NCBI GenBank assembly: GCA_963729955.1
Contig: CAVSQA010000008.1
Coordinates: forward strand, 66,547 to 130,546
Direction: 5' to 3'
Length of the DNA stretch: 64,000 nt
Origin: an uncultured Gemmatimonadales bacterium
GTDB lineage: Bacteria > Gemmatimonadota > Gemmatimonadetes > Gemmatimonadales > JACORV01
Made by a program: the position numbers and the translations under genes. Below the pieces are notes generated by a model. It made no database searches. It was not told the DNA's origin and saw nothing but the letters and a program-made list of their open reading frames with translations. This document shows positions 6,002-60,573 of this stretch, piece by piece (the stretch's first letter is position 1; each line of letters starts with the position of its first letter).

Positions 6002-8246
6002 ATGTTCCGTCGCTTGGCACTCACCATCGCGCTGGCGTCGCTGTCCGCCGGCGCTCTCGAGGCGCAAGGCTGGATCCGGCTCGAACACCCGATCCGCGTC
6101 GGTCCCCCCTCGTCGGTCGTGCGCGTCAGCTCCAACGTGCGGACCACGATCGACGGCCGCGTGGCGCGCGTGGAGGTGGAGGAGCAGTTCCGCAACGCGG
6201 GGGGCGCTCTCGCCGAGGGCACCTACCTCTACCCGATGCCGGGCGAGGCCGTCTTCACCGACTTCGCGCTGTGGATGGGCGAGACCCAGGTGCGCGGCGA
6301 GATGATGAACGCCGAGCAGGCACGAGGCGTCTACGAAGACATCGTCCGGCGCCTCAGGGACCCCGCCCTGCTGACCCTCGAAGGCCACGGGCTCATCCGC
6401 GCGCGGATCTTCCCGATCCAGCCGGGTGAGACGCGCAAGGTGGTGCTCCGCTACACCCAGGTGCTCGAGCGGGCCGGCGACGCGCTCTGCGCCTGCGCTA
6501 CGCCATCGGCGACCGGCCGGTGACCGCGGGCCGCGGCTACCTGGACCAGCCCGCGCCGTCGCCGACCGACGCGGTTCCGCTACACCGTCACGGTGCCGGG
6601 CGCCGACGCCTACGGCACCCCCTACTCGCCGACGCACATCGCGTCACGACGCGCCGGGTGGGGGACCGATGGAGATCACGCTCGAGCCCGACGCCTCGGG
6701 CGACGTCGAGATCTTCATCCCGCTGCGCCGCGGGCTGGTCGGCACGAGCGTGGTGACCAACGCCCCCGGCGGCGAGGACGGCTACTTCATGCTGCTCGAT
6801 CGGCTCCCCCCACCGAGGAGGACGCGGCCGGCATCCCGCGCGATCTCACCCTGGTGCTCGACGTGTCCGGCTCGATGTCGGGCGAGAAGATCGAGCAGGC
6901 CAAGGCGGCGCTCCGCCAGACCCTGGCGTCGCTGCGGCCGGCCGGACCGGTTTCGAGCTGGTCGCCTTCTCCACGCGCGTGGTGCAACGTTCCGGGACGA
7001 CTTCACGCCCGCCACGGCCGAGAACGTGCAGGCGGCCCGCGCGTTCCTCGACCGGCTGGTCGCCGACGGCGGCACCAACATCGCCGGCGCGCTCGACGCG
7101 GTGCTCGGCGCGGCCACCGGCGAGCGGAGCGGCTCCCCGTCGTCGTCTTCGTGACCGACGGCCTTCCCACGGTGGGAGAGCAGGCGCCCGACCGGATCGC
7201 GGCGCTCGCCGCGGGGCAGATCGGCCGCGCGCGCATCTTCACCGTCGGCGTCGGCTTCGACGTCAACACCTATCTGCTCGACCGGCTGGCCGTCGAAGGC
7301 CGCGGCAGCGCCGAGTACGTGGCGCCCAACGCCGACATCGAGACGGCGATGAGCGCCGCTGCTCGGCAAGCTGCGGCATCCGGCGCTGGTGAATCTGCGC
7401 ATCGCCGGCGCCCCGGTGTCGCTGGACGCAGACCTATCCCTCGCGCCTCCCCGACCTGTTCTACGGCGAGGAGCTGGTGGTCTTCGGGCGCTACCAGGGC
7501 AGCGGCGCGGGGCCGGTGGTGGTGACGGGCGAGCGGAACGGCCGCACCGAGCGGTTCACGGCCGACGCCGTCTTCCCGGCCAGCGCCGCCGAGAACGACT
7601 TCGTCCCGCGGCTGTGGGCCTCGCGGCGCATCGGCGACCTGACGCGCCAGATCCGGCTCGAGGGCGCTACCCCGAGCCTGGTCGAGGAAGTGCGCAGCCT
7701 CGGGCTCCGCTACGGCATCCTGACCGAGTACACCTCGTACCTGGTGCAGGAGCCGCGGACGGCGTGGAACCTGCCGGCGCCCATGCCGGCGTCGACGGCG
7801 CTCAGGGGCGGCGCCGGCGCGGCGACGATGCAGACCGGCCGCGACGCGTTCGCCAACGCCAAGGCGAGCGCCGCCCTGCGGCGGCGTGTCCACCCTGTCA
7901 GCCGCCGACCACGTCGCCGGCATCCGGGCGAGCGAGCTGGCCGCCGCCGGGGCCCCAGGCGCGGCGACCGTGCGCCGGGTGGCCGGGCGCCTGTTCGTCC
8001 GGACCGACAGCGTCTGGACGGATGCCTCCCAGCGGGACAGCTTGAAGGTGGTGGACGTCGCGCCGTACAGCGACGCCTACTTCGCCCTGGTGCGCGCGCT
8101 GCCGGAGATCGCGCCGTACCTCGCCGTGGGTGACCAGGTGCTGGTGGCGGGCCGGCGGGCGAGCGTGAAGATCACGCGGCGGAGGCCTCACCACCTGGCA
8201 GCCGGGCCAGCTGGAGGCCTTGGTGCGCGCGTTCCGGGGCGTCTAG
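6002..8246 (+). pseudogene. VIT + von Willebrand factor A domain protein, secreted; frame-disrupted as sequenced
   Basis: Signal peptide MFRRLALTIALASLSAGALEAQG. VIT domain in ORF 5882..6523. vWA MIDAS region LTLVLDVSGSMSGEKI and VVVFVTDGLPTVG in 6593..7525. Further pieces are in 6426..7154, 7477..8133 and 7886..8446. The likely true end is ...QLEALVRAFRGV with TAG at 8244-8246. At least 6 frame changes. Confidence 0.75.
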
Positions 8247-8292
8247 CGGTACCGGACGCACGGGGAGAGCTGCAACGACCGACGTCGCCGAG

Positions 8293-59900: not shown

Positions 59901-60573
59901 GAGCGTGTGGATCGTGGGCGGCGACGGTTGGGCCTACGACATCGGCTACGGCGGCCTCGACCACGTGCTGGCCTCGGGCCGCAACGTGAACGTGCTGGTG
60001 CTGGACACCGAGGTGTACTCGAACACCGGCGGCCAGGCCTCGAAGGCCACGCCGCGCGGCGCCGTGGCGAAGTTCGCCGCCGGCGGCAAGCCGAACGCCA
60101 AGAAGGACCTGACCCTGATGGCGATGTCGTACGGCAACGTGTACGTGGCGCGCGTGGCGATGGGCGCCGACGACGCGCAGACCGTGAAGGCGTTCCTCGA
60201 GGCCGACGCCTACGACGGCCCGTCGCTGATCGTCGCCTACAGCCACTGCATCGAGCACGGCTACGACATGCTGAACGGGCTCGACCAGCAGAAGATCGCG
60301 GTGCAGACGGGGTACTGGCCGCTGTTCCGCTACAACCCGGCCCTGGCGGCCGCGGGGAAGAACCCGATGCAGCTGGACTCCAAGGCGCCGTCGCTGCCGC
60401 TGGAGGAGTACACGAAGAGCGAGACGCGCTACACGATGCTCGCCCGCAGCGATCCGGAGGCCGCCAAGCGGCTCGCCGCGCTGGCGCAGCGCGACGTCGC
60501 CGACCGCTGGCGGTTGTACGACCACCTGGCGGCGATGGCGGTCAACGGGAACGGCGGGAAGCACGATGACTGA
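56973..60573 (+). pseudogene. nifJ: Pyruvate:ferredoxin (flavodoxin) oxidoreductase, single-polypeptide type; frame-disrupted as sequenced
   Basis: N-terminus IYPITPSSPMGEW in ORF 56973..57800. Domain III in 57883..58692. Ferredoxin domain CIQCGKCVLVCPHAAIR / CTGCELC in 59058.. TPP domain GDGWAYDIGYGGLDHVLASGRNVNVLVLDTEVYSNTGGQ in 58900..60573. Confidence 0.85.

Follow-up and report, generated by a model that had tools for sequence, protein, structure and literature searches.

The window (the whole stretch of DNA analysed, 64 000 nucleotides) consists of alternating blocks of intact genes and of genes split by single-base insertions and deletions, and on sequence comparison these frame changes are very probably errors of the assembled consensus without counterpart in the DNA of the organism. 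The block pattern is real and far beyond chance: three independent checks (GC3 phase, codon-score dynamic programming and frameshift-aware alignment) concur, and they bear out the alternation that an earlier note had described.

The GC3 phase, plotted along the 64-kb window, was stable over kilobases at 1–5.8, 25.4–35.5, 44.9–47.6, 53.3–56.8 and 60.5–64 kb and flipped every few hundred bases outside these five stretches. Same-strand frame junctions were counted with a codon-score dynamic programme that allowed frameshift moves, which gave 69 in 5.9–25.4 kb, 18 in 35.6–44.7 kb, 4 in 47.8–53.3 kb and 11 in 56.9–60.6 kb. Seven junctions were counted in the intact blocks in total, each of which was read as a normal gene boundary; two in 53.3–56.9 kb (55462/55464 and 56352/56355) were confirmed as such by a domain check and three in 25.4–35.6 kb coincide with orthologue gene ends.

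Alignments were performed with a frameshift-aware protein-to-DNA aligner written for this analysis; it replaced tblastn because the latter ran gapped HSPs through off-frame stretches, so that frameshifts could not be placed. Orthologues on a collinear 777-kb relative contig and homologues of pyruvate:ferredoxin oxidoreductase (PFOR) were used as references, and the orthologue sets comprised L161 (a collinear locus), L162, L163, the metagenome contigs L081 and L082, and P0001–P0006 (PFOR). The 20 disrupted genes carry 172 events of one base each, 151 of them insertions and 21 deletions. Ten intact genes (∼14 kb, including the aminotransferase island) contained no single-base event, whereas the pooled density of 5.4 events per kb predicts ∼75. 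Events are over-dispersed inside the disrupted blocks. The earlier estimate was one change every few hundred bases; the real indel density (∼1 per 180 nt) exceeds that of net frame changes because close insertions cancel each other's shift. The codon programme under-counts indels, with 11 junctions in PFOR versus 22 insertions by alignment. The window is ∼72% GC, and its six frames hold 291 ORFs that reach 80 aa or more, long antisense ORFs among them; at such a GC content ORF lists were uninformative, and tblastn gave matches on both strands. Among the matches listed, the best for the aconitase AcnA was 72% in genome contigs and 86% in metagenome contigs. The features are collected in Table 1.

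Table 1. Error patches, affected genes and clean stretches of the window. The limits of patches A, C and G are the positions of their first and last events.
Feature	Position	Strand	Content	Events and evidence
Clean stretch	1..6481		Aminotransferase 3′ end, GNAT, epimerase, TrkA-type channel, 625-aa protein, VIT/VWA first 480 nt	Unbroken frames (codon programme), Pfam domains complete; first indel versus orthologue at 6482
Patch A	6482..24554			97 one-base insertions, 19 deletions, 6.0 per kb (L161 alignment)
VIT/VWA	6002-8243	+	Patch A	
ECF sigma	8380-8772	+	Patch A	
Anti-sigma	8762-10088	+	Patch A	
FAD reductase	10180-11380	−	Patch A	
ActF	11418-12704	−	Patch A	9
ActE	12726-13218	−	Patch A	3
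ActD	13265-13758	−	Patch A	5
ActC	13774-15148	−	Patch A	9
ActB	15164-18142	−	Patch A	29
ActA	18165-18811	−	Patch A	1
lgt	18911-19854	−	Patch A	8
248-aa protein	20009-20753	−	Patch A	
Amidohydrolase	20717-21524	−	Patch A	
Heparinase II/III-like	22702-25418	−	Patch A	
In-frame TGA	23715..23717	−	Heparinase-like gene	Val in orthologue
Clean island in patch A	21473..23700	−	Class-III aminotransferase, 3′ third of heparinase-like gene	Event-free gap of 2229 nt
Class-III aminotransferase	21533-22702	−	390 aa, intact	0; 90% identity to orthologue, residues 1-390
Clean island in patch A	13933-14839		In ActC	
Clean island in patch A	18174-19117		Between ActA and lgt	
Clean stretch	24555..35780		Heparinase-like 5′ 864 nt, GHMP kinase, ABC substrate-binding protein, two permeases, GH38 mannosidase-like, response regulator, GAF histidine kinase, tal-pgi last 200 nt	0 single-base events versus L161/L163 orthologues, 85-92% identity; NCBIfam matches full-length
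Patch C	35781..44336			32 insertions, 2 deletions, 3.7 per kb (L163 alignment)
tal-pgi	35582-38359	−	Patch C	8
tkt	38378-40428	−	Patch C	16
Lactonase/phosphoesterase	40469-42866	+	Patch C	
fabH	43018-44011	−	Patch C	1
Nitroreductase	44100-44665	+	Patch C	
Clean stretch	44337..48579		88-aa protein, AcnA, start of TonB-type receptor-like gene	
AcnA	45040-47715	−	Aconitase	0; 92% identity to orthologue; no isolated 1-nt gaps versus L082 acnA
Patch E, lightly affected	48580..51907	+		
CarboxypepD_reg/OMP barrel protein	∼47743-51485	+	Patch E	
ETF-QO	51595-53239	+	Patch E	1 frame change
Clean stretch	51908..57287		Most of ETF-QO, GAF, YceI, MarR, ArsR, DUF302, thioredoxin, OsmC-like, PFOR first 313 nt	Clean by codon programme, complete Pfam domains
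Patch G	57288..59808	+	Wholly within PFOR	22 one-base insertions, 0 deletions, 8.7 per kb over the patch
PFOR	56975-60552	+	Patch G	22
Clean stretch	59809..64000		PFOR last 744 nt, dihydroorotate-dehydrogenase-like protein, PilT-type ATPase	No events versus PFOR homologues past 59808; NCBIfam matches full-length

The disrupted blocks proposed at 6002–25418, 35579–44668 and 56973–60573 were recovered, with the amendment that the patch edges lie within genes and that block A contains extra clean islands; the block at 47824–53296 is affected, but only lightly (three frame changes and one TAG). All of the casualties that had been named (lgt, tkt, tal-pgi, fabH, the six ACIII subunits, PFOR and ETF-QO) carry events, and the aminotransferase is the intact island that it had been taken for. 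Nearly all of the patch A genes could be aligned over the full orthologue; the alignment of ActE begins at residue 27, and those of ActD, ActF and the amidohydrolase begin at residues 4–7. Identity to L161 is mostly 82–92% (sigma 79%, ActE 75%, anti-sigma 62%). The in-frame TGA in the heparinase-like gene seems to result from two events separated by a few bases, one a deletion and one an insertion. In patch C the events are clustered, the clusters being 100–1200 nt long and separated by clean gaps of 600–1010 nt; the insertions at 43361 and 44336–44342 recur as 1-nt gaps against metagenome contigs L081 and L082. Patch E contains a TAG at 48580–48582 (CAG in L082), one inserted nucleotide at 49470 and two frame changes, close to 50318 and to 51907. 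These events were located by nucleotide alignment with L082 and the codon programme, positions past 49839 by the codon programme only. The positions in patch G match within a few nucleotides across six PFOR homologues, although with two of these six references the pair near 58038–58041 is resolved into a deletion and one additional codon.

The distribution of the indels follows the patches and not genes or operons. Patch edges fall inside PFOR, which is clean at both ends, inside the heparinase-like gene, which is clean at its 5′ end, and inside VIT/VWA and tal-pgi. Clean and error blocks have the same GC content; the patches are therefore not the outcome of a simple GC-coverage bias, and GC-driven loss of short-read coverage was rejected on this ground. 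Exact look-ups of six intact proteins of the window gave no gene on record, and two intact proteins led to short Logan contigs. The two near-identical independent contigs retrieved overlap the clean stretches only and cover no error sites: Logan contig L164 aligns gap-free with 27083–29422 (99.70% identity) and Logan contig L165 gap-free with 60031–61644 (97.6% identity).

When single-nucleotide indels were allowed for, the repaired genes were collinear with their orthologues, nearly all over the full length, and were as well conserved as their neighbours (identity mostly 82–92%, with four genes at 62–79%, versus 83–92% for intact genes). Repaired PFOR shares 88.5% identity with P0001 and reaches 1703 bits on TIGR02176 (cut-off 911); repaired PFOR, tkt, tal-pgi and fabH are all above the curated NCBIfam cut-offs, and residues 36–546 of repaired ETF-QO align with residues 36–558 of PDB entry 2gmh_A in one alignment that crosses the junction. 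The comparison with a related genome that had been suggested was carried out on the collinear 777-kb contig, and the orthologues are single ORFs there and in every assembly compared (L081, L082, L161–L163 and PFOR P0001–P0006; three to six per gene). The window contains two in-frame stops against 172 indels, and no large deletions, truncations or insertion sequences were found in its disrupted genes, nor second copies of lgt, fabH, tkt or the ACIII operon within its 64 kb. Exact look-ups of the repaired FabH, nitroreductase, 248-aa protein and ActA gave 0 of 4 matches; as Logan copies were found for only 2 of 5 intact proteins, this absence carries no weight.

Both insertions and deletions occur, as had been noted, in a ratio of 7:1 (151 versus 21); in calibration the aligner gave four false deletions per 237 simulated insertions. 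An association with homopolymers had been put forward for testing, and the outcome was negative: a same-base run was extended by 25 of 95 resolved insertions (26%), compared with 85 of 169 (50%) in a pipeline-matched simulation (p = 1.6e-4), and only four insertions lie in runs of at least three. Since the indels are depleted in homopolymers, the artefact is not of the homopolymer type; the depletion speaks against both homopolymer-associated error (classic nanopore, 454, Ion Torrent) and slippage mutation and suggests another kind of consensus artefact. Flow-order noise of the 454 type was also discarded, as many insertions fall between the two bases of GG or CC, a result that noise in flow space cannot produce. 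The insertions are not random in context. The complementary base directly adjoins all 57 of 57 uniquely placed C/G insertions (null 84%, p = 6e-5), and 78% form a C/G pair with the wobble base versus 44% in the simulation (p = 3e-5). The alternative allele would be synonymous in 43 of 52 cases versus a null of 65% (p = 0.004; against simulation p = 0.048), and a context-matched phase test gave p = 0.03. C↔G is the commonest difference among strains of the lineage (46–86% of mismatches). The 67 insertions with a unique placement lie in varied contexts (GcG, CgC, GcA, CgA, TcG and others).

Exact copies of the intact proteins lie on a single 381,693-bp contig in NCBI and ENA, and the window appears to belong to this metagenome-assembled contig of a Gemmatimonadota bacterium. 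It was most likely assembled from noisy long reads; the name of the collinear relative, of the form contig_NNNNN, is of a kind that we associate with assemblers for long-read metagenomes. In patches of 0.1 to several kilobases, with clean stretches next to them, the consensus appears to have been badly resolved, gaining single extra bases (∼6 per kb) and occasionally losing one. The frame shifts at every stray base and gene callers are left with short fragments; with the stray bases taken out, complete conserved genes are regained. Where co-assembled strains differ by a C/G polymorphism, many of the extra bases may represent its second allele, in which case the consensus step would have written both C/G alleles in tandem and the error patches would mark strain differences or thin coverage. 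The statistics for such stacked alleles are moderate and suggestive, and a context bias of the basecaller or polisher could give the same pattern. The clean block covered by L164 shows a strain difference of 0.3% yet zero insertions, so polymorphism alone does not force errors. No published description of this exact signature was found in the literature.

The errors could also have arisen with strain polymorphism uninvolved, by survival of raw insertion errors in long-read segments of low coverage or without polishing, and this course has a little less than an even chance of being the true one. Patch lengths of 0.1–19 kb resemble those of reads or contigs, the insertion excess is like that of PacBio continuous long reads (8% insertions versus 3% deletions; 10.1101/2021.08.23.457338), frameshift-fragmented genes are known from low-coverage long-read MAGs, whose low-coverage bins need polishing (PMC9262707), and soil nanopore assemblies have more frameshift errors than others (PMC13087279). 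However, random errors would be blind to codon phase, and the observed avoidance of same-base runs, the complement beside every uniquely placed C/G insertion and the preference for wobble bases speak against them, although some of this pattern could arise from a context bias of the basecaller. A mosaic or hybrid assembly, in which uncorrected long-read gap fills join accurate short-read contigs or polished segments, would suit the sharp alternation, the edges unrelated to genes and the clean stretches that are practically error-free over 10 kb. It is an unlikely origin: with equal GC in both kinds of block the usual high-GC short-read drop-out is not evident, the clusters and ∼700-nt clean gaps of block C are finer than typical gap fills, and the placement of C/G beside wobble bases is not predicted by it. 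Tiling of Sanger read tails would be a less likely source of these ∼700-nt gaps, as the accession numbers look recent.

That the indels are real, through recent genome decay or a mutagenic event that inactivated blocks of genes, is very improbable. They are present in the sequence as given, as are two in-frame stops, but this reading requires the joint loss of lgt, fabH, tkt, tal-pgi, six ACIII subunits, PFOR and ETF-QO in genes whose identity to orthologues is no lower than that of intact neighbours. Bacterial mutation is generally regarded as deletion-biased, the opposite of the insertion excess seen here, and in neutral decay substitutions far outnumber indels, the reverse of 172 indels and two stops. 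Homopolymers are avoided, patch edges lie within genes, and large deletions, truncations and insertion sequences are lacking from the disrupted genes. Slighter still is the chance that a free-living member of the Gemmatimonadota truly has blocks of core genes with over 150 +1 insertions next to wobble bases; were this so, recent patch-wise mutagenesis (for example error-prone synthesis across recombined tracts), or tolerance or decoding of the extra bases, would be conceivable. Programmed ribosomal frameshifting, or another form of recoding or editing, could in principle skip nearly all events by a +1 shift, but it has next to no chance of being the explanation: the sites share no slippery motif or stop codon and have diverse contexts, none is conserved in the orthologues compared, and up to 29 fall in one gene while adjacent genes outside the blocks have none. 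The block-wise sequence error that the earlier note had favoured thus stands as the leading cause, on the evidence of intact repaired genes, patches blind to gene limits, insertion excess, only two stops and single-ORF orthologues, and its alternative of a recently decaying genome is contradicted by conservation, patch placement, indel spectrum, the paucity of stops and the same orthologues.

The frame changes being almost certainly artefactual on this sequence evidence, they constitute no biological discovery and their significance is practical, for gene calling. The warning that automated calls in these blocks would be fragmented and misleading was justified, as stray bases split full-length genes: in about half of the window, and presumably in much of the contig and MAG, genes will be called as fragments, misnamed or missing. 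Completeness estimates will be lowered and pseudogene counts raised, and metabolic inference will be misled, as ACIII, PFOR, pentose-phosphate enzymes, lgt and fabH would seem lost; users of the record need frameshift-aware correction or re-polishing. If alleles are indeed stacked, an inserted C next to a G, or an inserted G next to a C, at the wobble position would reveal strain-collapsed consensus in long-read MAGs of high GC content and could serve to flag errors and strain-variable regions.

Among known systems, the pseudogene-rich decaying genomes of Mycobacterium leprae and Sodalis glossinidius have frameshifts in many consecutive genes, as here. They also show nonsense substitutions, deletions, lost conservation and gene-wise inactivation, from which the window is free, whereas here core genes (lgt, fabH, tkt) are affected with an insertion-biased, non-homopolymeric spectrum. 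Programmed +1 frameshifting, as in prfB and Euplotes, has a conserved motif, typically a slippery codon with a stop codon or a rare codon after it, and is conserved among orthologues; a +1 shift would be needed at most sites here too, but the conserved motif and the conservation among orthologues are absent. The closest likeness is to indel errors of long-read (PacBio/Nanopore) assemblies, which likewise break full-length conserved ORFs that frameshift-aware alignment restores, with an effect tied to local coverage and polishing (PMC9262707, PMC13087279, 10.1101/2021.08.23.457338). IDEEL is a test that measures this problem, and proovframe is one of the tools that correct it. Set against these errors, the sharp alternation with error-free stretches of 10 kb is unusual. 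The classic nanopore artefact is homopolymer-linked and tends to deletions, whereas here insertions predominate, homopolymer extension is depleted and the inserted C or G always stands beside its complement, mostly at the wobble position; an insertion excess is shared with PacBio continuous-read error. The window may also resemble the collapsed-haplotype consensus that long-read polishing can leave at heterozygous sites, in that the extra base behaves like a synonymous C/G allele beside the retained one.

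The GC content lay at 67–77% throughout the 64-kb window, which held, at 72% GC, 291 ORFs of at least 80 amino acids over its six frames. Such a composition opens long ORFs in each of the six frames, so that ORF length alone is little informative; long antisense ORFs of the window also gave tblastn matches to antisense ORFs of relatives. Reading by ORFs is treacherous here, even in clean blocks. Frames were analysed without a reference by a GC3 phase plot and by a codon-score dynamic programme (codon log-odds trained on intact genes, frame moves of 1 or 2 nt permitted). The GC3 phase was steady for kilobases in the intervals that the earlier note had listed as intact (1–5815, 25420–35571, 44727–47715, 53402–56771 and 60566–64000) and switched every few hundred bases elsewhere; stitched frame pieces gave polyproteins free of stop codons. 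The few junctions in the intact blocks are read as ordinary borders of neighbouring genes: three in 25.4–35.6 kb fall at orthologue gene ends, and those in 53.3–56.9 kb, together with the genes of 1–5.8 kb, are read as normal because the ORFs on either side carry complete Pfam domains (ArsR, DUF302, thioredoxin, MarR, YceI, GAF, TrkA channel and epimerase).

By its genes the window belongs to a Gemmatimonadota-like bacterium. For AcnA, the best of the matches listed were on two soil metagenome contigs, L081 and L082 (86% identity), and the top identity among the matches listed for species representatives was 72%. A relative's 777-kb contig (ena:ERZ25039480:contig_63817, loci L161 and L163) matches the window gene for gene, in collinear order, over ∼42 kb (window ∼5.8 to 48 kb); its proteins are 82–92% identical to those of the window and all of the collinear genes are intact there. 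The common order is VIT/VWA, sigma and anti-sigma, FAD reductase, ActFEDCBA (the ACIII subunits), lgt, amidohydrolases, aminotransferase, heparinase-like, GHMP kinase, ABC transporter, GH38, two-component system, tal-pgi, tkt, phosphoesterase, fabH, nitroreductase and acnA. Two short Logan contigs matched clean sequence only, both with zero gaps: L164 (run ERR12035932) at 99.70% identity over 27083–29422 and L165 (run SRR28002944) at 97.6% over 60031–61644. Closely related strains thus occur in other data sets.

Every protein of the collinear contig and six PFOR (pyruvate:ferredoxin oxidoreductase) homologues were aligned to the window by frameshift-aware protein-to-DNA alignment. The disrupted genes contained 172 one-base indels, of which 151 were insertions and 21 were deletions, both kinds being present as claimed earlier. 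The control genes (ABC substrate-binding protein, GHMP kinase, two permeases, GH38, response regulator, histidine kinase, an 88-residue protein, AcnA and the aminotransferase) showed 0 single-base events in ∼14 kb at 83–92% identity, against 75 expected if the pooled 5.4 events per kb applied to them; the aminotransferase is indeed an intact island. Nearly every disrupted gene, once repaired, covered its orthologue collinearly from first to last residue; ActE started at orthologue residue 27 and ActD, ActF and the amidohydrolase at residues 4–7. Nucleotide alignment with L082 (81% identity) independently showed single-nucleotide insertions, each isolated, at 43361, 44342 and 49470 and none inside acnA, which together with the orthologue counts confirms the alternation of intact and frame-broken blocks.

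Frame junctions, indels and related features (window coordinates)
Feature	Position	Insertions	Deletions	Same-strand frame junctions (codon programme)	Remark
Block	5.9–25.4 kb			69	
Block	35.6–44.7 kb			18	
Block	47.8–53.3 kb			4	
Block	56.9–60.6 kb			11	
Intact blocks, pooled				7	
VIT/VWA		17	1		
Sigma		1	1		
Anti-sigma		6	2		62% identity; alignment less reliable than others
FAD reductase		8	1		
ActF		9	0		
ActE		2	1		
ActD		5	0		
ActC		8	1		
ActB		24	5		
ActA		0	1		
lgt		2	6		
248-residue protein		4	0		
Amidohydrolase		4	0		
Heparinase-like		8	0		
tal-pgi		7	1		
tkt		15	1		
Lactonase/phosphoesterase		7	0		
fabH		1	0		
Nitroreductase		2	0		
PFOR		22	0		
Clean islands in 6482–24554	13933–14839, 18174–19117, 21473–23700				
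In-frame stop	23715–23717				TGA, orthologue Val; looks like deletion plus insertion a few bases apart
In-frame stop	48580–48582				TAG, CAG in L082; looks like substitution

The repaired proteins matched curated models over their full length for PFOR (TIGR02176, 1703 bits, cut-off 911), transketolase (TIGR00232, 818 bits, cut-off 682) and FabH (TIGR00747, 360 bits, cut-off 292). The transaldolase/PGI fusion matched NF007080 in one stretch (3–948 of 949; 1101 bits, cut-off 712), and repaired ETF-QO gave one uninterrupted alignment to the pig enzyme (2gmh_A 36–558) that spans the frame junction.

The error patches ignore gene limits. Their outermost events include 6482, 480 nt into VIT/VWA, and 24554, which lies 864 nt into the heparinase-like gene, counted from its start; between 57288 and 59808 only PFOR is struck, its first 313 nt and last 744 nt being event-free. 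Events in 35781–44336 form clusters with fairly regular clean gaps of 602–1010 nt (index of dispersion 2.1, p = 4e-4), a spacing that could stem from recombination tracts, from the tiling of reads or from the windows used in polishing. The block at 47.8–53.3 kb is lightly affected (the TAG at 48580, the extra base at 49470 and, seen by the codon programme only, changes of frame near 50318 and near 51907, as positions downstream of 49839 rest on codon statistics). Within lgt, six one-base deletions follow one another at 19309–19814, within 500 nt, against the dominance of insertions elsewhere; the error mode there is perhaps locally different, from another read or strand.

Several independent lines point to errors of the record, the block-wise sequence error that the earlier note had favoured. 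Conservation is unchanged between disrupted genes (most 82–92% identical to orthologues, four at 62–79%) and intact neighbours (83–92%). The 172 indels are accompanied by only two in-frame stops; under neutral decay substitutions are far more numerous than indels. Insertions exceed deletions 7:1, and of 237 insertions simulated the pipeline misread only 4 as deletions; the general view of bacterial mutation is that it favours deletions. Homopolymers are avoided: a same-base run was extended by 25 of the 95 resolved insertions versus 85 of 169 simulated (p = 1.6e-4), and only four insertions lay in runs of three or more, so that the homopolymer association proposed for checking proved to be a depletion. 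Patch edges fall within genes, and lgt, fabH, tkt, tal-pgi, all six ACIII subunits, PFOR and ETF-QO, each found affected as listed earlier, would otherwise have been lost simultaneously. Pseudogene decay was rejected as a class, its defining features having been tested and not found. Programmed frameshifting was also removed: no indel site was common to any compared orthologue and no slippery motif was found common to the insertion contexts.

The insertions are non-random. Nucleotide-level placement covers all but 24 events, which lie in dense clusters, and for a further 33 the inserted base is ambiguous. The inserted base was C or G in 84% of insertions, and its complement directly adjoined all 57 uniquely placed C/G insertions (null 84%, p = 6e-5). 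A wobble base was adjoined by 57 of 67 uniquely placed insertions versus 65% simulated (p = 0.008); C beside wobble G, or G beside wobble C, accounted for 52 of the 67 (78% versus 44% simulated, p = 3e-5). C/G exchange is also the commonest strain difference in the lineage (six of seven mismatches to L164; 46–56% to more distant relatives), and changing the wobble base to the inserted one would leave the amino acid unaltered in 43 of 52 cases (null 65%, p = 0.004; p = 0.048 versus simulation). It is conceivable, at somewhat short of even chances, that a C/G polymorphism between strains underlies many insertions, the inserted base being its second allele. A consensus step would then write both alleles in tandem, leaving an extra base, and the patches would mark either differences among co-assembled strains or thin coverage. 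A context bias of a basecaller or polisher may instead be the cause, as may simple low coverage. The context-matched phase test gave only p = 0.03.

The block pattern noted earlier thus stands, with more detail, but the frame changes are almost certainly an artefact of the record, and their biological interest is low. Gene calls and metabolic inferences are unreliable in 6.5–24.6, 35.8–44.3, 48.6–51.9 and 57.3–59.8 kb until re-polished or frame-corrected. The window presents a well known problem of long-read assemblies, the fragmentation of genes by indels (PMC9262707; PMC13087279; proovframe preprint, 10.1101/2021.08.23.457338). The usual signature of nanopore consensus is the homopolymer indel (PMC9262707), which is not that of the window. 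PacBio continuous-read error (8% insertions versus 3% deletions; 10.1101/2021.08.23.457338) shows a similar insertion excess. Unlike typical long-read indel error, the indels here are insertion-biased, non-homopolymeric and placed beside the wobble base.
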